From Cyanidioschyzon merolae (Eukaryota): a DNA stretch of 64,000 bases. Where the stretch lies: the NCBI GenBank assembly GCA_000091205.1, contig AP006492.2, one strand, 5' to 3'. Both the position numbers and the translations under genes were made by a program. Below the pieces are notes generated by a model that saw only the letters and a program-made list of their open reading frames with translations, did not search any database and was not told where the DNA came from. The number at the start of each line of letters is the position of its first letter. The stretch's first letter is position 1. This document shows positions 11,741-64,000 of this stretch, one piece after another.

Positions 11741-12313
11741 ATGGGTGCGAACGCGTCCACTTTGCTGGACGACGATATAACAGAAATAGTGGCCTCGTCG
11801 TCTTTCTCGAAAGATGAAATCGAGCAACTGTATAGCCGCTTTCAAAAGCTAGACCGCAACGGATCCGGAACGATCGATGCTTCAGAGTTCCTGATGATTC
11901 CGGAGCTCGCCATGAACCCACTTGTGCCGCGTATTGTCCAGCTTTTTGACGGTGTTAACTTCAAAGAGTTTGTGCGGCTGCTCTCGGCGTTCGGAAAAAA
12001 CGCACCTCGGGAAGCACGGATTGACTTCTTGTTCCGCTTTTACGACGTTGATGGGGATGGGGTGGTCAGCGAAGCAGACGTCAACAGTATTTTTCGGTTG
12101 CTCGTTGGCGAAAACCTGGACGACGCCACCTTGCGACGAATCGTACGCCAGGCTATGCTGGACTTTGGCGCTGGCCTAGAAGCTCTGGATGGCGGAGACG
12201 AGAGCGAAGAGCTGAACGGCTGTAGCGTTCAGTGCCGACCGCTCACGAGAGAGGACTTCTGTCGAAAGCTTCAAAACGTCGAACTCGATCGCATTTTACA
12301 AATATCCGTTTAG
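11741..12313 (+). CDS. Calcineurin B-like EF-hand Ca2+-binding protein (N-myristoylation motif MGxxxS)
   Basis: MGANASTLL... start. EF-hand loops DRNGSGTIDASEF and DVDGDGVVSEADV. PELAMNPLVPRIVQLFD matches the calcineurin B PELQQNPLVQRVIDIFD block. ATG at 11741 confirmed in sequence. Confidence 0.75.
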   Translation: MGANASTLLDDDITEIVASSSFSKDEIEQLYSRFQKLDRNGSGTIDASEFLMIPELAMNPLVPRIVQLFDGVNFKEFVRLLSAFGKNAPREARIDFLFRFYDVDGDGVVSEADVNSIFRLLVGENLDDATLRRIVRQAMLDFGAGLEALDGGDESEELNGCSVQCRPLTREDFCRKLQNVELDRILQISV

Positions 12314-12668
12314 GACTTCATTCCGGTGACCGCATTCGCTATGCTTCGTCAATCGAGCAGGGCATGCACCCCCAGGAGCCGCCTACGTGGCTACGCCTCC
12401 CCGCTCATGCTCTCTTTTTCAAGGCGATATCATTGGTGACCAGGCGAGCTGGTGCGTGCCCAGTGGTGCGTATCCACGAATACAACGCGCGCTCTCTACA
12501 ACAGCGTCTAGCGGCAGCCTCGGTTGTGGTGCTTTCGGAGTCGGCGTGCGGCGTGCACGAGGCACTGTCACCCTTCAACAAGCTCAGTTTAGAGGAGCCT
12601 CACAGGTCTCTTGCGGGACCAAAGTTCAGAGCCGCAGTCTCGCGCACTGGAGGTCGCCTTCTCTCTCT

Positions 12669-12697
12669 GTGTGTGTATGTATGTGTGTGTGTGAGCG
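12669..12697. repeat. (GT)n/(GTAT)n microsatellite
   Basis: gtgtgtgtatgtatgtgtgtgtgtg. Shorter in paralogous copy at about 46269-46290. Confidence 0.8.
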
Positions 12698-13144
12698 ACG
12701 CACAGCGGCCTCGCGAAAGGACGCGAGACCCCGCTCTGCGTACATTTACCACAACGATGCGCCTTCCTCGACGAACGTACATAACATAGGGGCATGCTAG
12801 AGTCTCCAGCAGAGTCGTCCTCGCTTTACATTCCAAGGATGTGTACTGCCGTTACATCCATACGTGCGCAGCCGGTGATACCACAGCACGTCATCGTGCA
12901 CAGGCAGGCACACGAGCCGCTCTGTCTCGGGTCCGCAGCTGAGGCACTGTCGCCTCAGAGGTCCAACAGACGCGGATACCGTTCCGCAGCCGCAGAGCAG
13001 GTCGAGCGCCCCAGAGGCAGCGCAGCGGCAACTGCTCCGAGATGGAGCGCTCCTGATGATGCCCGCTACAGATCGACTGTTCAATAAATGAATGAATGGA
13101 ATGCCACCTGGTCGAAGATGTTGCCGAACGGTTCACTAATCCTG

Positions 13145-14821
13145 TCACGACGCTACGACAACTGGTACGGCCTCCGATGTGCAAGCGGTGTCAGTGCCTG
13201 CCCCAGTGCCTGCTCCAGTGCTTGCGTCCGCAACACGCCAACGCGCACGAATAACACTGTCCGCTGGGTATATCGTCGGCAAGTAGATGATCTCGTCGCT
13301 GTGCACGGTGCGCACCCGAGTCCAGTCCACAGTGGTCGCCAGCACCGCCAAATAGCACATCAAATGGTTGATCGCATAGTTCCGCCCGACACACATGTGC
13401 GGACCGCAGCCAAACGTCAGGAAATGCTTCCGGTACTTTTGCTCCTCCTGCCGCGGCGGCAGCATCCGCTCCGGATCGAAGCGTTCAGGTGACGGAAAGC
13501 CCTGCATGCACGCAGTCCAGAGACTCGGCACCACGAGCGCACCTCGCGGCACCTCGTAGCCGTTCGGCAGCTGCACCCGCTTGCTCGCAACCTGCGGAAC
13601 CATCACAGGCGGCGGCCGGAAGCGCAGCACCTCCAGAACGACCGCGCGCGTGTACACCATCTGCTCCAGCAGCTCGTAGGTGATCGGCTCGTCGTGCGGG
13701 CGCAGCCGCTGTTGCTCTTCGCGCACCCGCTGCAGCACGTCGGGTCGCTCGGCCACCAGCACAGTCGTCCATACCAGCGACGCTGTCGACGCATCCTGAG
13801 ACGCAAACAAAAAGTCCAGCATGGCGTCCGCCATCTCGTGGTCCGCGCTGTACTTGGGCGGCGCCCGGTTCTCGCGCTTCGCAGCTGCAACCTCCTCCAG
13901 CACGGACACCGTCCAAAAGTCCAGCAGGCACTGCGGCTCCGCCTCGGCGTCCTTCCGGAAACGCTCCTTCGACGCCCGTACACACGCAGTCAGGTCCCGT
14001 AGTACACGCTCCCGCGCCCGTATCGCACGCCACAGGCCCGTCCCAGGCAGCGCTAACGGGAACGAAAGAAAACCCTGCGTGATCAGCAGATAGTCCGCAC
14101 AGAAGCGCTCCCGATCGCGCAGGTACGGACCCACAAACACCGTCTGCGACGTCCGCAGATTCAGGTCGCGGATGCGCGGGCGCACCTCAAATGCTGCCGC
14201 GGTGCCGTCCGTGCCGCGCCCCGACAGCCACGCCGCCAGGTGCTCGCCAATCAGGCGCTCGTGGATGCTCACGTACATGCCTAGCGCCTTGGGCGTGAAC
14301 AGCCGCAGAAAAGACTGCCGCAGGAGCTTGTGCTCCTCGCCGCTCTTGAAGGCAATATTGTTCCGCCCGAGGATCCGCCAGCCGTTCGGGTGCAGTATCA
14401 TCTCAAACGCGTGCGGGCCGTTCTCGCTGAGCACGTACCGGCTGAGGTCCGTGTCCGTCACGAAAAGCACGAAGAAGCCCGCCAGCGCATTCCAGCTCAG
14501 GCCGCACGGGTTTAAGCGCCGCTGCCGCTCCCAGAACCCGTACGGCGACAGCACCATTTCCACGATGCTCCCGATGAGCGGAATCACAAACCGCGGGCCT
14601 GGGATTCGCCCGTAGCCCGCCCAGCGCCGCAGTCGCACCTGCTCTGCGATCGCGAGGCCGAGCACCAGCAGCGCAACGTACGCCAGCGCACGGCTGGCGG
14701 TACCCCAGCCGGCGATCCCCAGCGCAGCGTCCGCGCGGCGCAGGCAGTGCCGCGCCACCGATACCACCCACTCGGCTGCTGCCACAGGCGTCGAGCGCGT
14801 AAGCGAGGCCGTCTCAATCAT
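13145..14821 (-). CDS. Cytochrome P450 monooxygenase (membrane-anchored)
   Basis: 558-aa ORF. Heme-binding signature FGCGPHMCVGRNYA, PERF motif (PERFDPER), and an N-terminal hydrophobic anchor ALAYVALLVLGLAIA. ATG confirmed at 14819-14821 on the minus strand. Confidence 0.85.
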   Translation of the reverse strand: MIETASLTRSTPVAAAEWVVSVARHCLRRADAALGIAGWGTASRALAYVALLVLGLAIAEQVRLRRWAGYGRIPGPRFVIPLIGSIVEMVLSPYGFWERQRRLNPCGLSWNALAGFFVLFVTDTDLSRYVLSENGPHAFEMILHPNGWRILGRNNIAFKSGEEHKLLRQSFLRLFTPKALGMYVSIHERLIGEHLAAWLSGRGTDGTAAAFEVRPRIRDLNLRTSQTVFVGPYLRDRERFCADYLLITQGFLSFPLALPGTGLWRAIRARERVLRDLTACVRASKERFRKDAEAEPQCLLDFWTVSVLEEVAAAKRENRAPPKYSADHEMADAMLDFLFASQDASTASLVWTTVLVAERPDVLQRVREEQQRLRPHDEPITYELLEQMVYTRAVVLEVLRFRPPPVMVPQVASKRVQLPNGYEVPRGALVVPSLWTACMQGFPSPERFDPERMLPPRQEEQKYRKHFLTFGCGPHMCVGRNYAINHLMCYLAVLATTVDWTRVRTVHSDEIIYLPTIYPADSVIRARWRVADASTGAGTGAGTDTACTSEAVPVVVAS

Positions 14822-15546
14822 TGCTGTCGCAGCTGCGCTCGATGCTCAAGCACGCGCACGCGCCAGCGAGTACGGCCGCGATCGCGAACGCGAACGCGTG
14901 TGTCTACGACTAGGAGGCGCGCGCCCGTGTGCTTCAGCAGCGTACGCGCCTTTGGACAGCAGCAAACGCTGACCGGTCCCGCTCAAGCGCTGCGCGTTTC
15001 GCCAAAACGTATACACAAACGGCACGCACTTGGTTCACGAGCAAAGCGCTCTGCTCGGTGCCGCTCCAAAATAGTCTCCAGCAACCTCTCGGGGGCGTCT
15101 GCGCCCCAGCACGGCACGCGCAGCTCAGCAACGCCTCGCTCGACGGGGTCTCGCTCAGCCTACCGAGTTCAAGCACGGCTTAGACTAGCCTTGCCCTTGC
15201 TGTGATTCAGTCCTTGCTTTCCCTCGCCGCACTAGACTCAGACTCGTGCGGCACAGCTGCGCACCGTCACGCCGGGTCAAGCGCGCTCGATCGTGTCAGA
15301 GCCCGAGGCAAGCGTTCACACGTGTACACACACACAGACACAAACACACTGATGCAGACAATAAAAACAGTGATATCGACAGGACCAAACCAGAGATGCA
15401 CACACACACTTCGACCCTGTTTGGAATACACACAAGACGGGTGTTCCCCGAAATACTGCTACACTTGATTGTGTTGAAACGCGCCTTCACCGAATAATGA
15501 AATGCGCGGCATCGAGCAGCACGCATCGACGACGCGACAGCCGCAA

Positions 15547-15547
<1 letters not shown>

Positions 15548-15622
<75 letters not shown>
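15548..15622. repeat. (GCGT)n microsatellite, about 19 units, alternating purine-pyrimidine (Z-DNA prone)
   Basis: Tandem gcgt units seen directly. Paralogous tract at 49137-49181 has about 11 units. Confidence 0.9.
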
Positions 15623-15623
<1 letters not shown>

Positions 15624-15739
15624 ATCCATAGACCGCTCGCCTTCAGACGTAGGGCAGCGAGGCACCCGGTCGATGCGGATGCGTCACGCGGGGCAATGCG
15701 CGCCACCACGCATCGATTGCGCTGCCGCTGAGGCCTGTT

Positions 15740-15892
15740 GATGATGATGATGATGGTGATGATGGTGATGCTTGGGAGCGAGGCGGGGAGTCGCTGTGCT
15801 GCGTCGCCGACGCTGCTGGCTACACGATCGCGGGAGGGGGGGGGGTTTGTGTTGATGCTTCTCTCTCTCTCTCTGTGTGTGTGTATGCATCT
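15740..15892. repeat. Compound simple-repeat cluster: (TGATGR)n, G10 run, (CT)n(GT)n
   Basis: tgatgatgatgatgatggtgatgatggtgatg; gggaggggggggggtttg; ctctctctctctctgtgtgtgtgt. Lies upstream of the minus-strand P450. Confidence 0.85.
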
Positions 15893-16136
15893 AACATCGT
15901 GCAGCGTCCCGTAATGGCACCAGATGGTGCAGTCGACGGGGTACGCTGATTTCCCGCAGGCGATGCCCGACATTACGTAGTAGGAAGAATGCCCCACAGG
16001 ATATGCAACGCTTTGTTATTTTCGAACTCGACTGTGTATGACCTCGAGCGAATTGCAAGTACCCTCAATTGATGGAGATGTGGAAGGGAAAAATCATGCG
16101 GAAGGCTCGATTTGCGCATGATGCTCACGTTTTACT

Positions 16137-33896: not shown

Positions 33897-36800
33897 TACT
33901 CCATCGGTTTCCTGGTTCCGTGTCTACGTTTCCGTATTGCTGTTTGGACCGTTCGCTTGAGGCGGCGGGAGCCTTGTACATTCCTGGGGAACGATTGGGG
34001 AGCGTGTTGTCCCCTAAGAGGCGCTTCAGCCAAATCTGCGTCGATTTCATCCAAGTGTTCTTGCGGTGCGTTGGGGTCTGCATGGATATCCGATCGAACC
34101 AGGTGTTCATAGTTGGCCCTTTGCCCCATATGCGTGCCCGGCAACCTGCTGCTGTCGCTTCTGTCGAGGCTATTTGGAGTTCAAGTCCGAGTGCCAGCGC
34201 GGTGGTTGCTCTGCTCTACATTGAGCATCCAACAGCAACAACGAGTCACATTGCCATGTTGGCGGCTGTCTGCAGACGTGAGGCATTTGTGTGGTTCATG
34301 CCGCACCACTCAGCACCACAGGTCGCAGGCTGGATGATACACATCCTTAGTGCCCTGGTACGAATTGCTATGCAGATAGAGGGGTCGGATGGGAATGGAC
34401 GTGCGATCGCTGTACGTCTATGCATCTTGGCGATCATCTCGTCGACGTGTGCCTCTTCGTCGATCGTCGGCGTTAGACAGACCCCCGGGTAGCGATATTT
34501 TTCCACGATCGGAATTTCCTGGTTCTGCAACCGCCACGAGCGATTGCGAATGCTCTGCGAGTCTCCATGGATGACCATGGCGCCGCACTTCGATGCTCCT
34601 ATGCTCATCTCCCAGCGATCGGCCCAGTCGCTGACTTGTTCCATGCTACCCGCAAGCGTTTCCGGGGCGGGTGCCAACAGCACGACATCGTCCGCAACGA
34701 GACAGCCTGCGAGGCGGTTCCTACGTGAGGGCTCCTCATCGGGCATCTCCACAGTCTATCCACGGCACCTCAAGCCCGTATTGTCTGCAGTTGTTCAGCA
34801 GATCGTTGATGAAGATGTTGAAAAGGAGCGGGGATGCGCGCTCGCCCTGCCGCAGTCCACGGCGGATTCTTCTGGAAGGGGTTCTTGAGCGGTCGCCCAG
34901 TCGGATGCGCATCCATGAGTCTGCATAGAGCGCACGGAAGAATGCTAAGCACTTTCCGGAGACTTGGGCTCGTTCCATCTTCAGAAATGGAGCCTCGTGC
35001 GGGACCGTGTCAAAGGCCTCTTGGAAGTCGATGAAGCATACGTAAGCTGGTTGTTGGCCGCTAATGGAGCGACGTTGCACCCATCAATGAGGGTCAGGGC
35101 ATGGCTCATGCACTCCTCGTGGCTCCGGAATCCAGCCTGTTCTGGGGCGAAGAACTTGCGTTCCACGAGGCCTCTCTGAGTCCGGTTCGTGGGAATGGCG
35201 CAAAGTAGCTTCATGATTGACGGGATGAGGCGAATAGTCCGGTAGTTGTTCATGTCTGTGTTTGTGTACGTCGGAGTCCTTTTTGAGGATCGGTACGACC
35301 TCGGCAGTCCTCCATACATCCGGGATGTACGCCTCTTCGAACATGCGTTGGATGAGCTCCACAAGGCGTTTGCCTAAGCTTGTGTCAGGTTCATCTGGTA
35401 TCGATAGTGTCCCTCTTGTCCCGTCTTTTGGGATCACCAGTTTCATCCACTCCGCCGCGATACCGTCGATGCCAGGTGTTTTGCGGTTGCTTGAGCATAG
35501 CACGGTCCGAACAGATTCAGGCCAGAAGATTGGGTCGTTCCATTCCGGTACCGGTTCGAGGCGCGGTAGTTCTGCGGCATATTGGTGCCAATAGATTCTG
35601 TCTTGGCAGTGCCCAGTTGCGTCTTCATGCAGCTCTGTGCCGTGGTCCGTCCAGGCCTCATTCACTGAGGCACGCTCCGTCCTCAGCGCTTCCTCATAAA
35701 CGATTGGTGTGAGCCCCAGGCACTTTTTTGGTGGGTCCAGTCTCGATCGAATGTAGCGCCAGGTCTCATCTTCGTTGGTGCTCTCTAGCATAGATTTCGC
35801 TAGGGAGGCGATTTTGCGGTTTCGATCCTCTCGTTTGTCTTCTCTGGAAAGTTTCTTCTTTCTTTTGATAGCTTCTTCATGTTGCGCCTGTAGCGCCGTT
35901 AGGACTGCCTTCGCTTCCTTGTCTCCTGCGTTGGCGCGTATGGCGGTGTGGTTGACGATCTGATAGAGTCGGTGATGCTCGTCAATCCGGGTATTGGTAC
36001 GTCGTTTCAGGCACTGAGGTTTGCAACTGTTGCGTTCTGGTGCAAGCAGTCCCAGCTCTCCGGCAATCTTCTGATTCCCATCTACAAACTCTCGTGCCAA
36101 TTGGTCTAAAGATTTGTATGCACAACTTTTCGGATCTTCAGCGCTGTGAGTAGGTGACTCGGTTTGGCGACGGCTTTCTTGAGTTCCTGCTGGGGTGCTC
36201 TTTCGGGGACGACTTGTGATGGGCTCGCTGGAGCCCCCGCCTGTGGGCTCGTTCGGGAGTTCTTCTTCCTATTCTTCTGTTTTTCTCTTGTTGGTTTTCT
36301 TCTTCATCGGGTTCTTTCCTGAGCTACATTCTCTGGTTACTTTGCATCTAGGCGGATCATGAGGTTTCTGTGTCTCCTTCTCCGTGTCTGGTTGGGTCTC
36401 TTTTGCCTTTTGTACAGTCCTCGACTTGTATCAGTTCTTCATTACTGTACTGGTAATTCGATATCTCGTAGTTCAATACCGAGGCGATCCCACAAATATT
36501 CCATGATGCGAAACCTATCGAGTCGTAGCGCATAAGGGAATAGGAGTAACGCTGCGGTACTCGAGAGATACGTTGTCGATTGAGATGCACCCTCCACGGG
36601 GTGTTTGAGAGCACATGCCACCAGCGCCTCCTGCATTCCAGTCGTTCACTGAGTGTCTGCCGCAGCGCTAGCGTAGAATCAGATGTACATTAGTCAAGGT
36701 CGATTCGAATGCGACCTTTATCTTGCCCGACGCTTTAACCTCCCCTCAACAATTGGGAACAGTCTGCAAACCACCCTTTCAGCGGCTACGTATCCGCTCC

Positions 36801-37226
36801 CCAAACACATAGGCGGGCAAGCCGCTTATTCCAGCTTCGACCGCAAACATACTGCCAGCCGTCTTCAAAAGTCTCCGCCGAGACTATTTCCAAAGTTGAG
36901 GTAGGTAGCCAAGGTAGGAGGTAAAACGGAGCCCGAGTTCAAGGATGGATCCAAGATTTGCGCCCGAACCTGCAGCGTTGATTCGGGAGGGGCGGATGAC
37001 TAATCAGGATTTTCGTCAACATTTTCTGGTGCTGCTGCCGCCGCCCCTCCGTTCGTTGCGGTCAAGGTCCCTGGCGTGGGCTTCCTTCGCCGTCGCCCAA
37101 GCACCCCGCGTTAACCCACTTTCAGAGCTTCTCCGGAAAAACTAGACCTCTAAGGCGGGCGTGGTGTGTGGGTCTTTAAGATAGTTGTTCTTTAATAAAT
37201 AGTTTGCGACTAGTTTGTTTTGTCTT
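33897..37226 (-). mobile_element. Non-LTR retrotransposon, copy B (3'-truncated), same family and same frameshifts as copy A
   Basis: ORFs 35084-36100, 34981-35364, 34736-35080 and 34246-34752 mirror the copy A segments at about 95% identity. The 5' end matches copy A at 24585. Lacks the last about 1 kb of the element. Confidence 0.8.
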
Positions 37227-43119: not shown

Positions 43120-44730
43120 TTAGACGCCACTCAGGAGCCAGCCATCCAGATCTAGAATTTCCTTATCTTTGGGAATATCGCCTTTCTCGGCCGCGGGAGA
43201 TAGGTTCCAATCGAATGTTCCGAGGGCACTTGCGACATCGGCAATCTCGGTATGGTTCGCTAGTTCAAGGCCCTCGTTTGGGGCGAACTCCAACGGAGAT
43301 ACAAGTTCAGAGGCATCTGCCGAACATGTGGTGAGTTTCAGAAAGACCTCATCGCAGCAAGGCGTTTCCTGAGCGGCAAAGTTGTGCGCTCTGCCCATGT
43401 CCGTGCATATTTCCTTCGCGATATCTTCCTCGGACATTCTCATAAACGGACACGTCTTTGTCTTCTCTGCTGGGCGCTGTCTGTAGCGGTCCGAGCCAGA
43501 CGCGCTAAGCGTGCGACGACGAGAGGACGCACACCGAGCTCGCAGCTGCTCGCGAACTCGAAGCTTGCCTACGCCATCCTTCAGACTCGTCAGTGATCCG
43601 GAACTCGAGCAGCGGCTCAACGGGGAGTGCGCCACGGTCAGCATGCACCTGTTCACAGGTGAATACGAGCTCGGAAGCATTTCGCCAATTTTTGTCTCCA
43701 GCGATGAGGAAACCTGAACGCTAGAGTACGTCTCCGGGAACTGGGGCGCCTCACTACACGATAGCTGACGACTCGGGTCTAAACAGAGGCTATGGATGGT
43801 CTGGGAGGAGCTCTGCGTGGTGTTCGCGTACTCCTCATTCGTCTTGCAGAAGCATGTCTTACCGTTGCCGACTGGAATAGGTTCACTGTTCCGCTGGATA
43901 CGTTTTCTCGGTCCGGACACAATTTCATGCAGCTCTGTCGCAGTCGAAGCAGAGAGACGCTCAAGCGAGAGTGAACGTGGAACCTGTGATGCATGGTCTC
44001 CGCTGGTGCGGGGAAGATTCAAGCGCGCTGCAGTCTCCGCATTCCACGGGCGTCCAGCGGCCAAGGTCGCAGACCGTTCGGCTCGCCAGCGGCGATGCAT
44101 AGAACTGTTCCACCTATTCTTGATCGCATTATCCGTGCGACCGGGAAGATATTTGCTCATTTTCGCCCAGCAATTCCCAAAACGCGCATGCAGCAGCACA
44201 AGAGCCTCGTCCTCCTCGAACGTCCATGCACCTCGACGCACGGACGGATCCAACTGGTTGAGCCAACGCTCCCTGCACTGCTTGCCGCTACGCCCAGGCA
44301 TACACGCGGCAACAGCAGTCCAAGCCTGAATGCCGAACTGTGCAACCAAACTCAGAAGAAGTGCATCCTCAGCCGGTGTCCAAGGCCCTTTCACGTGCGC
44401 GACACTCGGAGACTGACTCTTTCCCGCTACAAGGTCCAGGTTGTCGGACAGCAACCAGCTGCCCCCTTTCAACGAACTATATGAGACGCTTGAGGAGGAA
44501 GCTTCAGGAGCTGGCGTAAGACAAACCTCTGGCGACGGTGCTAGTGGAGACTCCGACAGCTTCGCCGACTCGTTACTCGGTGTGCTCGGCGTCGCAAGAC
44601 CCGCCGATTCAAACGCTTTTGACGGCAACTCCAGAAGCAAATAGCGAAAAGTTGTCTCCTCGTCAAGTGTGAAAGGCTCCACGTCGTCCATTATGGTTCG
44701 TCGGCAAGAGTACGCACCACACACCGGCAC
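43120..44730 (-). CDS. R2R3-type MYB transcription factor
   Basis: Two Myb/SANT repeats: KGPWTPAEDALLLSLV..W..VAACMPGRSGKQCRERWLNQLDP and RGAWTFEEDEALVLLHARFGNCWAKMSKYLPGRTDNAIKNRWNSSM. The start may be the internal Met (MDDVEPF, about 44691). Confidence 0.75.
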   Translation of the reverse strand: MPVCGAYSCRRTIMDDVEPFTLDEETTFRYLLLELPSKAFESAGLATPSTPSNESAKLSESPLAPSPEVCLTPAPEASSSSVSYSSLKGGSWLLSDNLDLVAGKSQSPSVAHVKGPWTPAEDALLLSLVAQFGIQAWTAVAACMPGRSGKQCRERWLNQLDPSVRRGAWTFEEDEALVLLHARFGNCWAKMSKYLPGRTDNAIKNRWNSSMHRRWRAERSATLAAGRPWNAETAARLNLPRTSGDHASQVPRSLSLERLSASTATELHEIVSGPRKRIQRNSEPIPVGNGKTCFCKTNEEYANTTQSSSQTIHSLCLDPSRQLSCSEAPQFPETYSSVQVSSSLETKIGEMLPSSYSPVNRCMLTVAHSPLSRCSSSGSLTSLKDGVGKLRVREQLRARCASSRRRTLSASGSDRYRQRPAEKTKTCPFMRMSEEDIAKEICTDMGRAHNFAAQETPCCDEVFLKLTTCSADASELVSPLEFAPNEGLELANHTEIADVASALGTFDWNLSPAAEKGDIPKDKEILDLDGWLLSGV

Positions 44731-46742
44731 AGAAAACTTGCTCCTTCGTTAACCAGAGTACTGGCAGCGCGTTACAAGCCGTCGACCAGCAACAGCGCGC
44801 TGCATATGTGTTTGCGCCGTCGCGCCGGCGGCGGGTTCATTCGCGCATCGTCCAATATTGAAATCTGGACATTATTGTCCCAAAAGGCTCTCTTGACATC
44901 GCACGAAGTTGTCACGTGACATGTTTTGGCGATGCACGAAGGCATCGCGCGGCGATGAGATTCTTGAAACGCTGATCCGCTGCTTTTTGCAGTGCCGGCG
45001 CTGGAAACAAGCGCGCAGCTGCCTAGAATGCGAAAAGTAACGGGCCTCTCCGAAGGAACTTATTGTTGAGGAATTTGCGAGTTGGCGGAACAATGGATGC
45101 TTCACCAGGCGCTGAGAACCAGTGCGAAATTGGGGATCGCGGGTCAGTGCAGACGTTCTGCTCTCCCAAAAAATAGAGCGGCGATGCGTCCGCACCGACG
45201 CTCATTCGCGCCACCTTCCGCTGCAGAGCACACAGGAAACGCAGAAACACCGAGCTCGACCAGTCCCAGAGGCTGCCATAAACATCGGAAACACAGGTAA
45301 TATTCTGGCGATTGCAGTTTTACTTCATGGGATGCTGGGCTCGGGGAAGGATCTCGGAATGGCTACTTTCGAGGCTACAGCAGCAGGTTCCGCGCTCCGT
45401 ATTGGTGTTGCGGCATAGCGTTCCACGATATCGGTACCCGGAAAACGTCAAAACTCAGCACTGCGCAAGAAGATTACATGAAGAACCAAGTCGGCTTCGT
45501 TTGCTTCCAGAAAATCAACTGCAGCCTGAGGACATTCTGCTCCCATTCGTTCCTCAAGTGATAGGCTCGTTCCGGAATAAATCGATGGGCATGGCACACG
45601 CTACACTGTGGTGCTGCATGGCACTGCTTCCATGTAGATGGCATCTGCGATCAAGGCGATGCCGGAAGCCGCAGGCAGCAGCACTGGTCAATCGTCGGCA
45701 ACATCGAGATAACCATGGATTCAAACGCATGCTCCTGCTCTGGTGACAAAACAAGGATTTAATACGGCGGTTCCGGCTACGAAGAGGTAGACATTCTGTG
45801 GGACAAGCCCGCGACTTTCATGTCTTGAGTCGATTTCGCGAAAAATTGCGGTTTTCCAACATGCTGCATTATTCAACGGAAGAAAGGCATAGCCGTTCCC
45901 GTCTAGTGAAGAACCAGGACTTCATTCCGGTGACCGCATTCGCTATGCTTCGTCAATCGAGCAGGGCATGCACCCCCAGGAGCCGCCTACGTGGCTACGC
46001 CTCCCCGCTCATGCTCTCTTTTTCAAGGCGATATCATTGGTGACCAGGCGAGCTGGTGCGTCCCCAGTGGCGCGTATCCACGAATACAACGCGCGCTCTC
46101 TACAACAGCGTCTAGCGGCAGCCTCGGTTGTGGTGCTTTCGGAGTCGGCGTGCGGCGTGCACGAGGCACTGTCACCCTTCAACAAGCTCAGTTTAGAGGA
46201 GCCTCACAGGTCTCTTGCGGGACCAAAGTTCAGAGCCGCAGTCTCGCGCACTGGAGGTCGCCTTCTCTCTCTGTGTGTGTATGTGTGTGTGAGCGACGCA
46301 GAGCGGCCTCGCGAAAGGACGCGAGACCCCGCTCTGCGTACATTTACCACAACGATGCGCCTTCCTCGACGAACGTACATAACATAGGGGCATGCTAGAG
46401 TCTCCAGCAGAGTCGTCCTCGCTTTACATTCCAAGGATGTGTACTGCCGTTACATCCATACGTGCGCAGCCGGTGATACCACAGCACGTCATCGTGCACA
46501 GGCAGGCACACGAGCCGCTCTGTCTCGGGTCCGCAGCTGAGGCACTGTCGCCTCAGAGGTCCAACAGACGCGGATACCGTTCCGCGGCCGCAGAGCAGGT
46601 CGAGCGCCCCAGAGGCAGCGCAGCGGCAACTGCTCCGAGACGGAGCGCTCCTGATGATGCCCGCTACAGATCGACTGTTCAATAAATGAATGAATGGAAT
46701 GCCACCTGGTCGAAGATGTTGCCGAACGGTTCACTAATCCTG

Positions 46743-48413
46743 TCACGACGCTACGACAACTGGTACGGCCTCCGATGTGCAAGCGGTGTCAGTGCCTGCC
46801 CCAGTGCCTGCTCCAGTGCTTGCGTCCGCAACACGCCAACGCGCACGAATAACACTGTCCGCTGGGTATATCGTCGGCAAGTAGATGATCTCGTCGCTGT
46901 GCACGGTGCGCACCCGAGTCCAGTCCACAGTGGTCGCCAGCACCGCCAGATAGCACATCAAATGGTTGATCGCATAGTTCCGCCCGACACACATGTGCGG
47001 ACCGCAGCCAAACGTCAGGAAATGCTTCCGGTACTTTTGCTCCTCCTGCCGCGGCGGCAGCATCCGCTCCGGATCGAAGCGTTCAGGTGACGGAAAGCCC
47101 TGCATGCACGCAGTCCAGAGACTCGGCACCACGAGCGCACCTCGCGGCACCTCGTAGCCGTTCGGCAGCTGCACCCGCTTGCTCGCAACCTGCGGAACCA
47201 TCACAGGCGGCGGCCGGAAGCGCAGCACCTCCAGAACGACCGCGCGCGTGTACACCATCTGCTCCAGCAGCTCGTAGGTGATCGGCTCGTCGTGCGGGCG
47301 CAGCCGCTGTTGCTCTTCGCGCACCCGCTGCAGCACGTCGGGTCGCTCGGCCACCAGCACAGTCGTCCATACCAGCGACGCTGTCGACGCATCCTGAGAC
47401 GCAAACAAAAAGTCCAGCATGGCGTCCGCCATCTCGTGGTCCGCGCTGTACTTGGGCGGCGCCCGGTTCTCGCGCTTCGCAGCTGCAACCTCCTCCAGCA
47501 CGGACACCGTCCAAAAGTCCAGCAGGCACTGCGGCTCCGCCTCGGCGTCCTTCCGGAAACGCTCCTTCGACGCCCGTACACACGCAGTCAGGTCCCGTAG
47601 TACACGCTCCCGCGCCCGTATCGCACGCCACAGGCCCGTCCCAGGCAGCGCTAACGGGAACGAAAGAAAACCCTGCGTGATCAGCAGATAGTCCGCACAG
47701 AAGCGCTCCCGATCGCGCAGGTAAGGACCCACAAACACCGTCTGCGACGTCCGCAGATTCAGGTCGCGGATGCGCGGGCGCACCTCAAATGCGGCCGTGG
47801 TGCCGTCCGTGCCGCGCCCCGACAGCCACGCCGCCAGGTGCTCGCGAATCAGGCGCTCCTGGATGCTCACGTACACGCCTAGCGCCTTGGGCGTGAACAG
47901 CCGCAGAAAAGACTGCCGCAGGAGCTTGTGCTCCTCGCCGCTCTTGAAGGCAATATTGTTCCGCCCGAGGATCCGCCAGCCGTTCGGGTGCAGTATCATC
48001 TCAAACGCGTGCGGGCCGTTCTCGCTGAGCACGTACCGGCTGAGGTCCGTGTCCGTCACGAAAAGCACGAAGAAGCCCGCCAGCGCATTCCAGCTCAGGC
48101 CGCACGGGTTTAAGCGCCGCTGCCGCTCCCAGAACCCGTACGGCGACAGCACCATTTCCACGATGCTCCCGATGAGCGGAATCACAAACCGCGGGCCTGG
48201 GATTCGCCCGTAGCCCGCCCAGCGCCGCAGTCGCACCTGTCTGCGATCGCGAGGCCGAGCACCAGCAGCGCAACGTACGCCAGCGCACGGCTGGCGGTAC
48301 CCCAGCCGGCGATCCCAGCGCAGCGTCGCGCGGCGCAGGCAGTGCCGCGCCACCGATCCACCCACTCGGCTGCTGCCAGAGGCGTCGAGCGCGTAGCGAG
48401 GCCGTCTAATCAT
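46743..48413 (-). CDS. Cytochrome P450 paralog; N-terminal anchor region disrupted by clustered 1-bp deletions (possible pseudogene or anchor-less variant)
   Basis: 556-aa ORF, identical to the 13145-14821 product over the catalytic domain (FGCGPHMCVG). Residues about 10-60 read in an alternative frame, WDRRLGYRQPCAGVRCAAGARPRDRR instead of the hydrophobic anchor. At least six single-base deletions occur within about 200 bp at 48230-48420. Confidence 0.6.
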   Translation of the reverse strand: MIRRPRYALDASGSSRVGGSVARHCLRRATLRWDRRLGYRQPCAGVRCAAGARPRDRRQVRLRRWAGYGRIPGPRFVIPLIGSIVEMVLSPYGFWERQRRLNPCGLSWNALAGFFVLFVTDTDLSRYVLSENGPHAFEMILHPNGWRILGRNNIAFKSGEEHKLLRQSFLRLFTPKALGVYVSIQERLIREHLAAWLSGRGTDGTTAAFEVRPRIRDLNLRTSQTVFVGPYLRDRERFCADYLLITQGFLSFPLALPGTGLWRAIRARERVLRDLTACVRASKERFRKDAEAEPQCLLDFWTVSVLEEVAAAKRENRAPPKYSADHEMADAMLDFLFASQDASTASLVWTTVLVAERPDVLQRVREEQQRLRPHDEPITYELLEQMVYTRAVVLEVLRFRPPPVMVPQVASKRVQLPNGYEVPRGALVVPSLWTACMQGFPSPERFDPERMLPPRQEEQKYRKHFLTFGCGPHMCVGRNYAINHLMCYLAVLATTVDWTRVRTVHSDEIIYLPTIYPADSVIRARWRVADASTGAGTGAGTDTACTSEAVPVVVAS

Positions 48414-49136
48414 TGCTGTCGCAGCTGCGCTCGATGCTCAAGCACGCGCACGCGCCAGCGAGTACGGCCGCGATCGCGAACGCGAACGCGTGTCTCTACG
48501 ACTAGGAGGCGCGCGCCCGTGTGCTTCAGCAGCGTACGCGCCTTTGGACAGCAGCAAACGCTGACCGGTCCGCTCAAGCGCTGCGCGTTTCGCCAAAACG
48601 TATACACAAACGGCACGCACTTGGTTCACGAGCAAAGCGCTCTGCTCGGTGCCGCTCCAAAATAGTCTCCAGCAACCTCTCGGGGGCGTCTGCGCCCCAG
48701 CACGGCACGCGCAGCTCAGCAACGCCTCGCTCGACGGGGTCTCGCTCAGCCTACCGAGTTCAAGCACGGCTTAGACTAGCCTTGCCCTTGCTGTGATTCA
48801 GTCCTTGCTTTCCCTCGCCGCACTAGACTCAGACTCGTGCGGCACAGCTGCGCACCGACACGCCGGGTCAAGCGCGCTCGATCGTGTCAGAGCCCGAGGC
48901 AAGCGTTCACACGTGTACACACACACAGACACAAACACACTGATGCAGACAATAAAAACAGTGATATCGACAGGACCAAACCAGAGATGCACACACACAC
49001 TTCGACCCTGTTTGGAATACACACAAGACGGGTGTTCCCCGAAATACTGCTACACTTGATTGTGTTGAAACGCGCCTTCACCGAATAATGAAATGCGCGG
49101 CATCGAGCAGCACGCATCGACGACGCGACAGCCGCA

Positions 49137-49137
49137 A

Positions 49138-49181
<44 letters not shown>
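49137..49181. repeat. (GCGT)n microsatellite, about 11 units
   Basis: Paralog of the 15548-15622 tract, shorter. Confidence 0.9.
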
Positions 49182-49182
<1 letters not shown>

Positions 49183-51122
49183 ATCCATAGACCGCTCGCC
49201 TTCAGACGTAGGGCAGCGAGGCACCCGGTCGATGCGGATGCGTCACGCGGGGCAATGCGCGCCACCACGCATCGATTGCGCTGCCGCTGAGGCCTGTTGA
49301 TGATGGTGATGATGGTGATGATGGTGATGCTTGGGAGCGAGGCGGGGAGTCGCTGTGCTGCGTCGCCGACGCTGCTGGCTACACGATCGCGGGAGGGGAG
49401 GGTTTTGTGTTGATGCTTCTCTCTCTCTGTGTGTGTGTGTATGCATCTAACATCGTGCAGCGTCCCGTAATGGCACCAGATGGTGCAGTCGACGGGGTAC
49501 GCTGATTTCCCGCAGGCGATGCCCGACATTACGTAGTAGGTATTGGACCAATGTGCACGCGCACCGCTGCAGCGGGTGCTGTATCCTACTGCAGTATAGC
49601 TCATCCTTGAATTGCCACATTGGTTGATCATCGCTGAAGAACACTTTTAGCGACCAATAGTGTCTATCCAGCGCTGCTTCAGTGCCGTAACTGGTCATTC
49701 CGCACACGCGTCCAGTGCTTTTGCGGCCGACAGTCACTGTAGGCGCCGTATCTGCATACGCTTGCTCTCATGTTTTAAAGCCGCATGCCGCCCAGAATTA
49801 GATGCCCTTTCGTGCTGTTGCCGAGTTGTGCGGGCGTCTTGCGTGTAGACCAGCCCACCGAATCATCATGCCACTGTCGTCCTAGTGAATGCACCATCAT
49901 CGAAACCCGAATGGATCACGCATTGGACACTGCGAGCGTTTCCGAAGTATCTCGTGAAGATCAACAACGCAGGCGAACGCGAAGGTTGCGCTTTCCCGGT
50001 GGCGGGGCAACCTCCAGGGTGACGAAGCACTTTACCCCGTGACAAATTGAAAAGCTTGTGCATACGATGGTACCTTCTGTCCAGCTGATGCCTGCAGAGC
50101 AACTGCTGTAATGTTATAGTTCGCGCTCATGGTCCTGATGGCGGAATAAGAGACCATAGGTATCCTTTTTACCCGTGATCTAGGGGTACACTCACAAGCA
50201 ACGCATGATATCACGACGGGAGCGTGCTTGACACACACCATACTCATCGGTGATTCTTCTGCGCTAACGGTCGCTCTCATCGAGCCGGGCCTGCGTTGGC
50301 ATGCATTCGCCATCTTCATCGACCGAAATCGCATTCACGCGTATTGCAGGATTCTCCTCTTTGTCCCGCAACAATAGGATGTAAGTTTCTTTGCATTCAG
50401 GTCCGTCCAGTGTATCCGACAACCATACCCGGTCGTGAACAACACAACGCCTGTCTGATTTCTTTGGAAACAGTTTTCAGGCAGGATTTGTACCATGCTG
50501 CGAAAGCAAATCAGACCGAGGGAGCGCATGCGAAAGCGTCCCAGCCAGCGTGCATTCCAAATGAGGTATCTTCATGAGATCGGCGTCCGAGTCCCGTCGA
50601 CATGGAAATGCACAGATTTGTCTAGTGGTGTGCCAGGATGATTTTACGGTTTCCGGCGGCACGCTGCCTTCCGGAGCGGCAGCTCTGCAGCGTATAGCGC
50701 AGAGATTTCTGCAAACCACTCAAGTCCTTGCATGGAGCGCAGGCTTACGCCCAATAAATGTTCCTTGACATTGGGAGGCACTTTCATCGTCTGGTTCCAC
50801 AACTGCGGTCGCTAGGTAACCTCGATTGAATGCATCTATCCGACTGGGGTGCTCTACAGGCCCCACGCTTGCTGCTCGAGAACACGAGCTTTCCGAGACA
50901 TCGATCATGAATACGAGTAACGTTAGAAAGGCTGCCAAGACCTTCTTTTCGCGCGCTCGAGTGTCGAAAAGAAACCAAGTCGTTCAGTCGTGTGACTGCC
51001 ACCAGGCACTACACGCGGGACCCCCTCGGACCTGGCTTCGGCACTGTGCTCTGCTGCGCGTGAACGTACGAGCTTATGTTTCTAGACGAACGACGACCTG
51101 TAGCCGATTACCAACGCAGTAC

Positions 51123-52676: not shown

Positions 52677-55676
52677 ATGGAGGACAGCAGAGGATCTAGC
52701 GCAGACGCGACTGGACTTTCTACTATGATCAGGGACTTGTCGCTGAACAGTGGTAGCGGGTCGAAACAGAACTCGACTAGCACTGGCGTTGGTGTTGCTG
52801 GTGCCACGGGTGCACCAGCTTCTGGAGAAACCTCAAGTCGCAAGACTTCCCCGATGAGCTACGCCAGCGCAGCCCAACAGTCGGGAGCGGAGAGCGGGGT
52901 ACTTGGTGGCACAGCGGGCGGGCCGTACGCAGCTTCGGCTGCTGCGCAAACCGCACGTGCGCCCTCCGCGAGCAGTACCAGCAGCATCAGCAGCGGCGGC
53001 GGCAGCAAAGGCCCCGGCGGAGCGCTACAGGCCGCTGGGGAGAGCATCCCTCCTGCGCAGAGCGTATCGGGCGCTGGTGCCGCTGGTTTCGGAGACGGAT
53101 CTGTGGCGGGCTTCGCCCTAAACGGTATGAGCTCGTTGCCAGCGAGCGGAGCTACTGCTGTGCCAGCCGCATCAGCGAGCGGAACGGGCGAACTGCCAAA
53201 CGTGTCTCTCTATGTTGGCGATTTGCAGCCAGATGTCGTTGAACAGAACCTTTTCGAGCTGTTTTCCTCCGTCGGACCGGTCGTCTCGGTAAGAGTCTGC
53301 CGCGACGTTGTAACCCGTCGCTCGCTTGGTTACGCGTACGTCAACTTTCAGAACCCAGAAGACGCCGAGAGAGCGATCGATGTCCTGCAGTTCTACGAGG
53401 GGCCGCTCACGAAAAATAAGCCCATTCGGATCATGTGGAAGCGCAGTGATCCTTCGCAACGCCGAAATCCCGAGGGAAATATCTTCATCAAAAATCTCGA
53501 CAAGAGCATTGACAACAAAGCGTTGTACGACACATTCAGCACATTTGGCAAGGTTCTTTCGTGCAAACTTGCGACCGACGACAAAGGCAATTCCTTGGGA
53601 TATGCGTTCGTGCACTACCAGGACGCGAATGTGGCGAAATACGTCATCTCGAAGATGAACGGCATGTTGCTCAACGGACAGAAGGTTTACGTTGGAGAAT
53701 TTCGCCCAAGACGCGAGCGCGAAGCCACTGGGGAATTATCCACCAAGTTCACGAACGTGTACGTCAAAAACTTGGATGAGTCGTTGTGCACGACCGAAGA
53801 GGTGACAAAGCTATTCGCACCATATGGAAACATCACGTCGATTTTCATCCCAACGGAAACCGTTCAGGAGCAGCAACCACACCACGAAGACGAGCACCGT
53901 GCACCTAGTGAAGAAGCGAGCAGCGAAGCGGGTCGCCAGGGTGGCAGCAGCCAAGAGGTCAAGTCGGCGGGCGCCGACCAATCGAATGCGGCACCAGACC
54001 TGGAAACGTCGGAACGGAACGATGGAGCCAAGGCTCCAGAGAATCGTGCGCATGCTCAAAGCGTTGTGCGCGTGCGACCTCGAGGATTTGCCTTTGTCAA
54101 TTTTGAGACGCCCGAGCAGGCAGCTGCAGCTGTAGAGGCTCTGAATGGAATGGAGCTTAACGGAAAGACGCTCTATGTCGGGCGAGCACAGAAGAAAGCC
54201 GAACGCGAGGCGATGCTACGAGCGCAAATGGAGCAGCTGCGCAACGACAGGATGCAGAAACTCCAGGATGTGAACCTTTTCGTGAAAAATCTCTCCGATG
54301 ATGTGGATGAGAATCGCCTCCGAGAAGAGTTCTCCCGCTTTGGCACAATCACCTCGCTGCGTATCATGCGCGATGAAAAGGGCGTGTCGAAAGGGTTCGG
54401 GTTTGTTGCGTTTTCGCACCCTGATGAAGCGATCAAGGCCGTCACTGAAATGAACCAGCGAATTGTCGGTCAGAAGCCGATATACGTGGCCCTCGCGCAA
54501 CGCAAAGACCAAAGAAGAGCACAGATCGAGGCACAGCGAGCGGCGATGATGCGAGCCCAGATGAGCTTCCTTCCGCCTGGCTTGGCTGCATCCATGTACG
54601 TTCCTGGAACTGGCATGCCGACACCTTCGGGTTATCCATATCCGTACGCAGTGCATCCGATGCAGATGCAGATGTCCATGGGCATGAGCCGCGCTATGTC
54701 CGCGATGCCCGGTGGTGCTGCCTCGGGTGCCATGACGTACGGCGGATTCGCAATGCAGCCAAATATGGCGGTTGGAGCATCAGGTATCCCGCGGATGAAT
54801 ATGACCTCGCCGAATATGACGAACGCTGCGCCCGCATCCGCCGGCAGTATTCCAATGGGCGGCCCAAATGCCGCCATGCTGATGCAGGGCCGCATACCCT
54901 ACGCTACCGTGGGATCGCAGCAGCCAATGACGAGCACGCTTGGCTCTGGTCAGGTTCTGCAGAACAGCGGGGCGCCGGGCGCTGTAGTCGGCGTACCCGG
55001 ATCGGCAAACGCCGAAGCAGGTGCCACAGCGGCCGCTTCTGGTCATCCCAACCCGAACTTTGCTGCAAGCGGCGTTGCAGGTCGTGCGGGGCCTCGCCAA
55101 GCGCGAATGGCTGCCCGTATGGGTCCAGCATCTGGCCCGATGCCGGGAGTATCCATGCCAGCCATGGCGTCAGGGTTACCGACCGGCCTGGGTGCACCCG
55201 GCATGGGCTACAAAATGGGTGGCGCGATGCGGGCGCCTCCTGGCGGTACCATGGCGGGTATGGTTGCCATGTCACCAATGACAGCTGGGGCGGGCAACAC
55301 GGTACCGTCCGGTGCCATGGGTAACATGATGATTGGCTCTGCGGCATCGCAGCCGCTCACCGTCCAAATGCTTGCGAATGCGGACCCCAAACAGCAGAAA
55401 CAAATCCTTGGAGAGCGGCTCTATCCACTCGTTTACCAGCAACTTGTGCGTGAGGGTAAGCGAGAGCTCGCTCCGAAAATAACCGGTATGCTTCTGGAGA
55501 TGGACAACTCCGAAGTGCTCCACCTTGTTGAGTCCCCAGAGGCCCTGCAGGAGAAAGTCGAAGAGGCGCTCGAAGTCTTGCAGCAACACCTGGCTAGTTT
55601 ACAGGCCAAGGCCGCTCAGCATACCTCCGCACAACAGGGCTTGTCATCAACAGCGCCGTCAAACTCTAGCGCGTAA
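52677..55676 (+). CDS. PABP: Poly(A)-binding protein (4 RRMs plus C-terminal MLLE/PABC domain)
   Basis: RRM1 LYVGDL...GYAYVNF. RRM2 IFIKNL...GYAFVHY. RRM3 NVYVKNL...GFAFVNF, with an acidic insertion of about 90 aa. RRM4 NLFVKNL...GFGFVAF. MLLE: KQILGERLYPLVYQQ...ITGMLLEMDNSEVLHLVESPEALQEKVEEALEVL. M/G/A/P-rich linker. Confidence 0.85.
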   Translation: MEDSRGSSADATGLSTMIRDLSLNSGSGSKQNSTSTGVGVAGATGAPASGETSSRKTSPMSYASAAQQSGAESGVLGGTAGGPYAASAAAQTARAPSASSTSSISSGGGSKGPGGALQAAGESIPPAQSVSGAGAAGFGDGSVAGFALNGMSSLPASGATAVPAASASGTGELPNVSLYVGDLQPDVVEQNLFELFSSVGPVVSVRVCRDVVTRRSLGYAYVNFQNPEDAERAIDVLQFYEGPLTKNKPIRIMWKRSDPSQRRNPEGNIFIKNLDKSIDNKALYDTFSTFGKVLSCKLATDDKGNSLGYAFVHYQDANVAKYVISKMNGMLLNGQKVYVGEFRPRREREATGELSTKFTNVYVKNLDESLCTTEEVTKLFAPYGNITSIFIPTETVQEQQPHHEDEHRAPSEEASSEAGRQGGSSQEVKSAGADQSNAAPDLETSERNDGAKAPENRAHAQSVVRVRPRGFAFVNFETPEQAAAAVEALNGMELNGKTLYVGRAQKKAEREAMLRAQMEQLRNDRMQKLQDVNLFVKNLSDDVDENRLREEFSRFGTITSLRIMRDEKGVSKGFGFVAFSHPDEAIKAVTEMNQRIVGQKPIYVALAQRKDQRRAQIEAQRAAMMRAQMSFLPPGLAASMYVPGTGMPTPSGYPYPYAVHPMQMQMSMGMSRAMSAMPGGAASGAMTYGGFAMQPNMAVGASGIPRMNMTSPNMTNAAPASAGSIPMGGPNAAMLMQGRIPYATVGSQQPMTSTLGSGQVLQNSGAPGAVVGVPGSANAEAGATAAASGHPNPNFAASGVAGRAGPRQARMAARMGPASGPMPGVSMPAMASGLPTGLGAPGMGYKMGGAMRAPPGGTMAGMVAMSPMTAGAGNTVPSGAMGNMMIGSAASQPLTVQMLANADPKQQKQILGERLYPLVYQQLVREGKRELAPKITGMLLEMDNSEVLHLVESPEALQEKVEEALEVLQQHLASLQAKAAQHTSAQQGLSSTAPSNSSA

Positions 55677-61961: not shown

Positions 61962-64000
61962 GCGGGTTTTTTCCATTGACAAAACGTTTACTTAGGCCAG
62001 CGTTCTCCGATTACGCGCATTTTTCTTTTCTTACTCTTTTTTTGTGTTTTTTTCAGAGCGAGTTGGGGTATCCATCAACCCCCTACCTCCATGTTACATT
62101 ACCTATACTTCGTCTCGGATATTCTGGTCGTTTCATACATCCTATCGTGTGTGCCTAGTACCTGCCGTTCCGTATCCTCCTTTGTGCCTGAACCGCTGGA
62201 GCAGATAGGTCATAGAGCTAGAACAGCTTTTCTATACCACAAAGGGCGTCGGCTCGAGGTGTGCTTCACCCGACGTAGAATCGGGTCTCGTCGTCAGTTT
62301 GTGCTCGGACAGTCTGCGGATGCAGGCTTGTCTTCGCTGCACGACACGCTGGAGAAACTTGGCTGTTAGGATATATCGTGGGAGCCGCCTCTCTCCTTCG
62401 TGATCATGCATGGAATGCGTTGTCGCCGGTTGGAAATGCGGATTTGTGCTTGACGCTCACCACAGTGGATAGGCGCAGAAAGCATACTAAACCCGTGTGC
62501 GCGTCCGATTCGCTAGACCTTCCGCTTGGAAGGTAGCACGTGAGTCTGTTGGCCACTCATGAGCGCTGAGGCTCGGTTAGCGGACCATCAGTTGCCAGTG
62601 CTGCAGTCAAAGTGAGTGTCCGGCCTTCGGCTATCATGGTGATGCCCAGCTGCTGCTGTCCTTCAAGGAGCTCGCTGCGCTCCTGCTTCCAGCGCGGGCA
62701 CTGTAAGCCTAAATATGTCAGCGTCTCGGGGGTCTCGTTTCCGCAGCAGGAACAGTGTGACTCCCAGTGCGATTCCAGTGTCCCTATATGGTTTAGAGCC
62801 GGTGCCGCTAGCCAGAAGCCACCAACGCGGATTTTGGCGAGCCACTGGGTACCTCGAGCAAGTCCTGGGAATTCCAGCGCCTCCCACCAGTACTTGCATG
62901 TGTATGCTAGGTTGTAGTTCCGGTATAGAGTCAAGCCGGCGTTACGGGCCCGACTGGTTCCGTGTCTACGTTCCCATATTGTTGTTTGGACCGTTCGCTT
63001 GAGGCAGCGGGAGCCTTGTACATTCCTGGGGAACGATTGGGGAGCGTGTTGTCTCCTAAGAGGCGCTTCAGCCAAATCTGCGTCGATTTCATCCAAGTGT
63101 TCTTGCGGTGCGTTGGGGTCTGCATGGATATCCGATCGAACCAGGTGTTCATAGTTGGCCCTTTGCCCCATATGCGTGCCCGGCAACCTGCTGCTGTCGC
63201 TTCTGTCGAGGCTATTTGGAGTTCAAGTCCGAGTGCCAGCGCGGTGGTTGCTCTGCTCTACATTGAGCATCCAACAGCAACAACGAGTCGCATTGCCATG
63301 TTGGCGGCTATCTGCAGACGTGAGGCATTTGTGTGGTTCATGCCGCACCACTCAACACCCCAGGTCGCAGGCTGGGTGATACACATCCTTAGTGCCCTCG
63401 TACGAATTGCTATGCGGATAGAGGGGTCGGATGGGAATGGACGTGCGATCGCTGTACGTCTATGCATCTTGGCGATTATCTCGTCGACGTGTGCCTTTTC
63501 GTCGAGCGTCGGCGTGAGACAGACCCTCCAGGTAGCGATATTTTTCCACGATCGGAATTTCCTGATTCTGCAACCGCCACGAGCGATTGCGAATGCGCTG
63601 CGAGTCTCCATGGATGAGCATGACGCCGCACTTCGATACTCCTATGCTCATCTCCGAGCGATCGGCCCGGGCGCTGACTTGTTCCATGCTACCCGCAAGC
63701 GTTTCCGGGGCGGGTGCCAACAGCACGGCTTCGTCCGCAACTAGACGGCCTGCGAGGCGGTTCCTATGTGAGGGCTCCTCACCGGGCATCTCCACAGTCT
63801 ATCCACGGCACCTCAAGCCCGTATTGTCTGCAGTTGTTAAGCAGATCGTTGATGAAGATGTTGAAAAGGAGCGGGGATGCGGGGTCGCCCTGCCGCAGTC
63901 CACGGCGGATTCTTCTGGAAGGGGTTCTTGAGCGGTCGCCCAGTCGGATGCGCATCCACGAGTCTGCATAGAGCGCACGGAAGAACGCCAAGCACTTTCC
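61962..64000 (-). mobile_element. Non-LTR retrotransposon, copy C (3' part; continues beyond window end)
   Basis: ORFs 62557-63186 (C-terminal Cys/His domain), 63258-63611 and 63460-63795 (RT, LVADEAVLLA box) match copies A and B. The A-rich 3' tail is at 61990-62060. Confidence 0.75.

Follow-up and report, generated by a model that had tools for sequence, protein, structure and literature searches.

Seven clustered single-base omissions in the deposited sequence of a duplicated CYP710 gene of Cyanidioschyzon merolae 10D are probably reference errors

CYP710A proteins, which are related to fungal CYP61, are sterol C-22 desaturases with a cytochrome P450 domain, a heme motif, and usually an N-terminal hydrophobic anchor. 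P450s that lack the anchor or are sent to another compartment also occur naturally, such as the soluble fungal CYP55 (P450nor), the mitochondrial CYP11 and CYP27, which have basic presequences, and the plastid CYP74 and CYP97. For Cyanidioschyzon merolae, sterol profiles have not yet been established according to a review (PMC8172173). When Sato et al. resequenced two laboratory strains derived from 10D, 288 SNPs and 81 indels relative to the published nuclear sequence were common to both, and an earlier-reported 1-bp deletion discrepancy in CMO228C/Tic236 was confirmed (PMC7291098). Documented errors of the 10D reference thus include single-base indels that change an annotated protein, and the resequencing blames the published sequence rather than strain divergence (PMC7291098).

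The locus described here belongs to the same genome and shows the same class of change, but with seven events within 331 bp of a duplicated gene. Both copies of this gene, referred to as copy 1 and copy 2, have the P450 domain and heme motif of CYP710A. The usual anchor is found in copy 1 and is absent from copy 2 as deposited. As in CYP55, CYP11/CYP27, and CYP74/CYP97, the P450 domain of copy 2 follows an N-terminus that is not hydrophobic and that in some cases is basic. Those families, however, are old and conserved, and their N-termini recur among relatives, whereas the N-terminus of copy 2 is found in one database entry only and derives from frame-shifted, otherwise unchanged anchor-coding sequence.

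The window analyzed is a 64,000-nucleotide stretch of C. merolae 10D chromosome 10. Self-BLAST of the window identified a direct repeat of 3.67 kb with 98.2% identity, each copy of which contains one P450 gene. The segments and genes are as follows.

12312..15984: duplicated segment, copy 1 (self-BLAST), flanked by an EF-hand gene (11537-12313) on one side and a phosphoglucomutase gene (19587-21761) on the other.
13145..14821, minus strand: copy 1 CYP710 gene, 558 aa, exact match to BAM80373.1 / XP_005534980.1.
45916..49540: duplicated segment, copy 2 (self-BLAST, with Pfam for the neighbors), flanked by a Myb gene (43120-44730) on one side and a poly(A)-binding-protein gene (52677-55676) on the other.
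46743..48413, minus strand: copy 2 CYP710 gene, 556 aa, from the list of open reading frames (ORFs), exact match to BAM80381.1 / XP_005534988.1.

The other genes of the window are ordinary nuclear genes, encoding thioesterase, p24, EF-hand, phosphoglucomutase, DUF1995, Myb, poly(A)-binding, and photolyase-like proteins.

Both C. merolae 10D proteins are named "cytochrome P450, family 710" at NCBI. Each matched Pfam PF00067 at ~1e-43, with 148.9 bits for copy 1 and 149.8 bits (1.4e-43) for copy 2 against a cut-off of 22.8. The proteins were examined for two P450 superfamily motifs, the heme-ligand motif FxxGxxxCxG and ExxR; both copies contain the heme-binding motif FGCGPHMCVG together with E-V-L-R. 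In the alignment, residues F470, G471, G473, C477, G479, E397, and R400 were invariant, as was the I-helix segment FLFASQDASTASL, which is present in both copies. The best named homologues of both copies were sterol 22-desaturases (CYP710A). Identity to CYP710A / sterol 22-desaturase proteins from green algae, plants, and trypanosomatids was 42-54%, and the orthologues from Cyanidiococcus and Cyanidium were 80% and 70% identical, respectively. In P450 nomenclature, family membership corresponds to an amino acid identity of at least 40% to named members. With identities above this value, both copies are assigned by sequence to the CYP710 family and are predicted to be sterol C-22 desaturases.

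Base-by-base alignment of copy 2 with copy 1, complemented by alignments to the environmental contig L001 and to 11 environmental contigs in all, located the following omissions in copy 2.

48239, 48313, 48326, 48357, 48394, and 48407 (junctions): six 1-bp omissions in coding nucleotides 7-180 of copy 2. The corresponding copy 1 positions and missing bases are 14642 (C), 14717 (C of CCCC), 14731 (C of CC), 14763 (A), 14801 (A of AA), and 14815 (C), respectively.
48569..48570 (copy 1: 14978): seventh 1-bp omission, where copy 2 lacks one C of CCC; the site is in the 5' UTR and lies 156 nt ahead of the ATG.

A single copy-1/copy-2 substitution, at 14785/48379, lies amid the coding omissions. A preliminary examination of the letters, hereafter the sequence-only reading, had noted at least six 1-bp deletions within about 200 bp. 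Each of the six that it quoted was borne out by the alignment, but the extent was understated: the cluster comprises seven omissions in 331 bp, and the interval given there covers six of them and misses the one at 48569. That the first deletion shifts the frame and later ones restore it was also found to be correct, with the frame running 0, -1, -2, 0, -1, -2, 0 in the direction of the gene.

The omissions alter the N-terminus of the deposited protein. The affected element of copy 1 is as follows.

14645..14701, minus strand: coding sequence of the hydrophobic anchor of copy 1, TASRALAYVALLVLGLAIA, residues 41-59; the copy 2 counterpart is out of frame.

The sequence-only reading had described the conversion of this anchor into a basic hydrophilic stretch and had proposed a prediction for both N-termini. 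In the comparison, run by Kyte-Doolittle hydropathy, copy 1 gave a hydrophobic segment with a 19-residue mean of 1.84, and this is replaced in copy 2, whose residues 1-62 include 17 Arg/Lys and 3 Asp/Glu and contain no hydrophobic segment by the same method. Microsomal eukaryotic P450s have an N-terminal hydrophobic transmembrane segment before the proline-rich hinge; such a segment is a feature of copy 1 and is missing from copy 2 as deposited. The frame-scrambled part of copy 2 corresponds to residues 3-60. From residue 61, the P450 domain is unchanged and its Pfam scores are alike in both copies, in line with the description of the catalytic domain as intact. The reading frame, as had also been stated, survives overall, with an open ORF of 556 aa compared with 558 aa.

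Taken at face value, such an N-terminus would be consistent with a variant in which the omissions are real and adaptive, and copy 2 has been remodeled into a soluble or organelle-targeted CYP710 with a new location or function. In this reading, an arginine-rich, presequence-like N-terminus takes the place of the anchor, behind which the catalytic domain is intact and the frame is kept overall. N-termini as rich in Arg/Lys as that of copy 2 loosely resemble mitochondrial or plastid presequences. A chromosome 10 P450 gene, CMJ284C, is heat-inducible according to a preprint and might be taken to support a functional role, but CMJ284C could be mapped to neither copy. To evaluate the open frame, 200,000 simulations were run, each removing seven random bases from the corresponding interval of copy 1. 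The whole ORF remained open in 30.9% of the simulated sets, and the number of coding-region deletions was a multiple of three in 31.4%. In this GC-rich stretch, the shifted frames are almost without stop codons. Since the full ORF stays open by chance in ~31% of cases, frame preservation is no evidence of selection. Furthermore, only six of the seven events fall within the coding region, and targeting peptides are not known to evolve by six independent compensating frameshifts without substitution.

The relatives of the two proteins also bear on an adaptive N-terminus. The N-terminus of copy 1 aligned with its counterparts in the orthologues from Cyanidiococcus and Cyanidium and in another metagenomic relative, sharing the consensus DAxLGIxxW...AYxxLxxLxLAIxEQxRLRR, whereas that of copy 2 did not align, and no relative at any distance was found with an N-terminus of the copy 2 type. 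In the 90%-identity protein cluster, all 13 of the 13 other members were 558 aa long and had the copy-1-type N-terminus. Environmental contigs coding for an intact protein (P0124) were found in two genomic contexts. In five of these (L001, 30.5 kb; L002, L003, L008, and L013), collinear at 99.1-99.3% identity with the copy 2 locus, the Myb gene lies downstream; in six (L004-L007, L009, and L010), which are collinear with the copy 1 locus, the downstream gene is the EF-hand one. All seven bases were present in 11 of the 11 contigs (99.1-99.5% identity; 11 samples; five syntenic with copy 2 and six with copy 1), which represent strains other than 10D and do not show the bases of 10D itself. The seven bases were likewise present in copy 1 of 10D. 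Both copy loci are intact in all of those environmental strains, and the presence of both contexts among wild contigs indicates that the duplication is older than these strains. Because environmental contigs of both loci code for the identical P0124, the loci undergo concerted evolution. In the sequences compared, the seven omissions are private to the deposited copy 2 of 10D, being absent from its paralogue, from the orthologues, and from relatives at the same locus.

Exact look-ups in a protein collection whose 10D proteins are all NCBI-derived gave results of limited weight. The scrambled peptide matched the NCBI entry and no other protein of the collection. As a control, the phosphoglucomutase and DUF1995 proteins of 10D were looked up exactly and were found only in the NCBI-derived sources of the collection. 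A look-up of the neighboring Myb protein gave no match. A repaired copy 2 and 13 plausible copy-1/copy-2 chimeras had no exact match, to which no weight is given because the 10D content of the collection is NCBI-derived only. For a small upstream ORF spanning the seventh deletion, exact look-up found the copy 1 form in ENA metagenomes only and did not find the copy 2 form. Searching for homologues of residues 1-220 of copy 2 returned four distant matches and missed even the 99%-identical cluster and is hence uninformative. The deletion allele was also sought in JGI metagenomes with a 28-mer over two deletions. Two matches (L011 and L012) were obtained and rejected as chance, because they are unrelated GC-rich contigs from one soil metagenome that are otherwise unlike the window.

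These observations bear directly on the soluble or retargeted variant, which the sequence-only reading had listed among three options. It gained no positive support: an event falls in the UTR, the frame stays open by chance in ~31% of trials, and the anchor is kept by every wild relative at the locus. We regard it as extremely improbable that the omissions are real and that copy 2 has been remodeled adaptively. Even in the barer form, that the losses are real in 10D and give an expressed, anchor-less CYP710, soluble or in a new compartment, with its N-terminus rewritten in one step, the proposal is very improbable.

We compared the cluster with the background of change in the region. A 21.7-kb comparison of the window with L001 gave 132 substitutions and 14 indel events, among which the only 1-bp indels were the seven at 48239-48569 and another at 37224. 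Differences were defined as private to 10D when at least two environmental contigs agreed against 10D. By this definition, the copy 2 locus (12.4 kb) had ~29 private substitutions, evenly spread, and its private 1-bp indels were the seven alone, while the copy 1 locus (5.9 kb) had 20 private substitutions and no indels. Outside the cluster, over ~18.4 kb, private substitutions numbered ~47 and private 1-bp indels were absent. Inside the 331-bp interval, seven 1-bp deletions stood against two substitutions. The substitution at 48257 is a genuine 10D variant, because it is also present in copy 1. The distribution of 1-bp indels and substitutions inside and outside the interval differed with P = 4e-6 (Fisher's exact test). 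The clustering is far beyond chance, and an indel:substitution ratio of 7:2 inside the cluster against 0:~47 outside does not fit evolution.

These values also bear on early pseudogenisation, another of the options raised. As gradual decay it was not upheld: there is no substitution excess in the interval, and the private substitutions of copy 2 are as dense as the background. Decay is not seen elsewhere in copy 2 either: it has no stop codon and one private amino acid change, M182V, in the 496 residues of the catalytic domain, where V matches the deeper orthologues. A dN/dS comparison of the two catalytic domains had been suggested. The differences could be counted, but 4 non-synonymous and 3 synonymous are too few for a meaningful ratio. 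The background of ~47 substitutions to no single-base indel excludes gradual decay. The main rival to a sequencing error is that the omissions are real and stem from one very recent error-prone repair or synthesis event in the 10D lineage, for example, during a conversion between the two copies, which left a patch of -1 frameshifts. Copy 1 would then supply the enzyme, and copy 2 would be anchor-less and probably non-functional or mislocalised, as a first step of pseudogenisation. The deposited sequence does show the omissions, in a genome that was finished with care, and the copies are redundant, so the loss of one should be tolerated. The concerted evolution of the loci implies, moreover, that recombination-associated synthesis occurs here. 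By contrast, none of the 11 wild contigs has even one of the seven events. In addition, we know of no natural mutational process that gives ~2% single-base loss over 331 bp essentially without substitutions, a rate orders of magnitude above those of known processes. On balance, a real lesion of this kind is unlikely.

The events themselves carry a distinct signature. There were seven losses and no insertion, corresponding to ~2.1% per base over 331 bp. On the plus strand, the lost bases were C, C, C, A, A, C, and C, and all being C or A has P = 0.017 given the composition. In six of the seven cases, the lost base or run lay right after a T (GATcCCC, CGTcC, GATaCC, CGTaA, TCTcAA, and GGTcCC). 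This context occurs at 13.7% of the positions of the region under the null (binomial P = 4e-5, in a post hoc test). The GC content of the locus reaches its maximum, 74%, at 48200-48399, under the cluster. Since one of the seven is in the 5' UTR, the events are indifferent to the coding region. The pattern points to a single systematic, strand-specific, and context-dependent process acting at ~2% per base. A loss of single bases at ~2% per base is typical of low-quality single-pass reads, and a peak swallowed after a particular dye-labeled base would give such a pattern. The strand and context bias might also reflect the action of a polymerase, which would favor a real lesion. Hairpin compression as the specific cause was not supported, as the single strand is predicted to fold no more strongly than shuffled sequence (z = -0.39), and the inverted repeats in the region were short ones only. 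The omissions are thus present in the deposited sequence, private to it, tightly clustered, and biased by strand and context.

We infer that the origin of the omissions lies in sequencing and not in the cell. The seven omissions are most probably errors in the deposited, Sanger-era reference of 10D chromosome 10. Localised sequencing error had been the first of the three options in the sequence-only reading, and it is the one favored by private, clustered, and strand- and context-biased losses. An artefact is favored over biology because the events are private, consist of deletions only at ~2% per base, are biased by strand and context, and coincide with the GC peak; it is further favored because they are indifferent to coding and lie in a duplicated segment of a reference with known indel errors. 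Base-calling drop-outs, or errors in PCR or subclones, may have entered in a poorly covered stretch that is very GC-rich and part of a 3.6-kb duplicated segment. The real copy 2 would then resemble copy 1 and code for an ordinary CYP710 of 558 aa with its anchor. An annotation artefact would account for residues 3-60 of XP_005534988.1; it may have survived since six omissions in a stop-poor, GC-rich stretch keep the frame open.

Besides the resequencing by Sato et al., the finishing of the genome offers a precedent. [quoted passage not shown] That 48239-48569 is one of the filled gaps is a lead and not a result. Against a sequencing error, the reference is finished, described as 100% complete, and of high shotgun coverage. 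Copy 2 also has private substitutions of its own (47876, 48494, and 48858), which implies that reads of the two copies were kept separate. The argument in support of an error is indirect, and the T-context statistic within it is post hoc.

The main value of the finding is a correction. It also illustrates how frame-compensating indels, in dense clusters, can go unnoticed as open reading frames in a "100% complete" reference. If the omissions are real, a sterol-pathway paralogue, copy 2, would have been knocked out or retargeted very recently and in one strain only, which would be of modest interest. If they are errors, residues 3-60 of BAM80381.1, XP_005534988.1, and UniRef100_M1URY0 would be fictitious, and localisation predictions, P450 censuses, and sterol-pathway models that use the second entry would inherit the mistake. 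C. merolae would then have two ordinary anchored CYP710 genes.

The 28-mer GGCGATCCCAGCGCAGCGTCGCGCGGCG, which is the copy 2 sequence across two of the single-base deletions, was found as an exact match in L011 (positions 411-438) and L012 (positions 61-88), two contigs from one unrelated GC-rich soil metagenome, Ga0190271. No similarity between these contigs and the window was detected apart from the 28-mer. The match is due to chance, albeit surprising. In addition, a G at window position 37224 is missing relative to L001, an environmental contig syntenic with the copy 2 locus. This was the only 1-bp indel besides the copy 2 deletions in the 21.7-kb comparison with L001, and it is located exactly at the end of a 3.3-kb inverted repeat (33912-37223).

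The coding sequences of the two cytochrome P450 genes also differ by substitutions. At window position 47876, codon 180 of copy 2 encodes Val; Met is present in copy 1 (M182, copy 1 numbering) and in all near relatives. Val occupies the equivalent position in the orthologues of Cyanidiococcus, Cyanidium, Galdieria, and Porphyridium. The Val codon of copy 2 is either an ancestral allele that was kept or a reversion. The copy 1 coding sequence contains four substitutions within 66 bp (14195, 14200, 14248, and 14261). These are specific to the 10D reference and are absent from copy 2 and from all 11 environmental contigs. Three of the four change residues (Q187H, R192G, and T208A), and Q187 and R192 are conserved across most orthologues. 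This cluster may represent more reference errors or genuine recent changes; private oddities are therefore present in the 5′ third of each 10D copy.

Upstream of each P450 copy, a (TGCG)n microsatellite was observed, with 19 units at copy 1 (15547-15622) and 11 at copy 2 (49138-49181); the unit count also varied among the environmental contigs. Beyond the P450 segment, the window is a patchwork of additional segmental duplications, and tandem arrays are also present:

9704-11506 and 16137-17939, 1.8-kb inverted pair, 99% identity, on both sides of the copy 1 P450 segment
24585-27896 and 33912-37223, 3.3-kb inverted pair, 97.8% identity
26851-28878 and 61966-64000, 2-kb inverted pair, 93% identity
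21889-23044 and 32575-33734, 1.2-kb direct pair, 82% identity
28927-29145, perfect-looking tandem array of a 27-bp unit, 8 copies with 98% matches
22878-23064 and 33530-33829, two related 75-bp tandem arrays

The 1.8-kb pair has the same arrangement in the environmental contig L004. No Pfam match was obtained for ORFs within these further duplicated pairs, and all three tandem arrays fall in the stretch separating the P450 loci, which is repeated and Pfam-less.

In environmental strains, both P450 loci encode an identical protein, the intact P450 P0124. Furthermore, the two 10D copies have variants in common that were not seen in the environmental contigs of their own locus, for example, at 14660/48257 and 14066/47664. 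Judged from these sequences, the copy 1 and copy 2 loci are evolving in concert, which implies ongoing gene conversion between P450 copies 33 kb apart.
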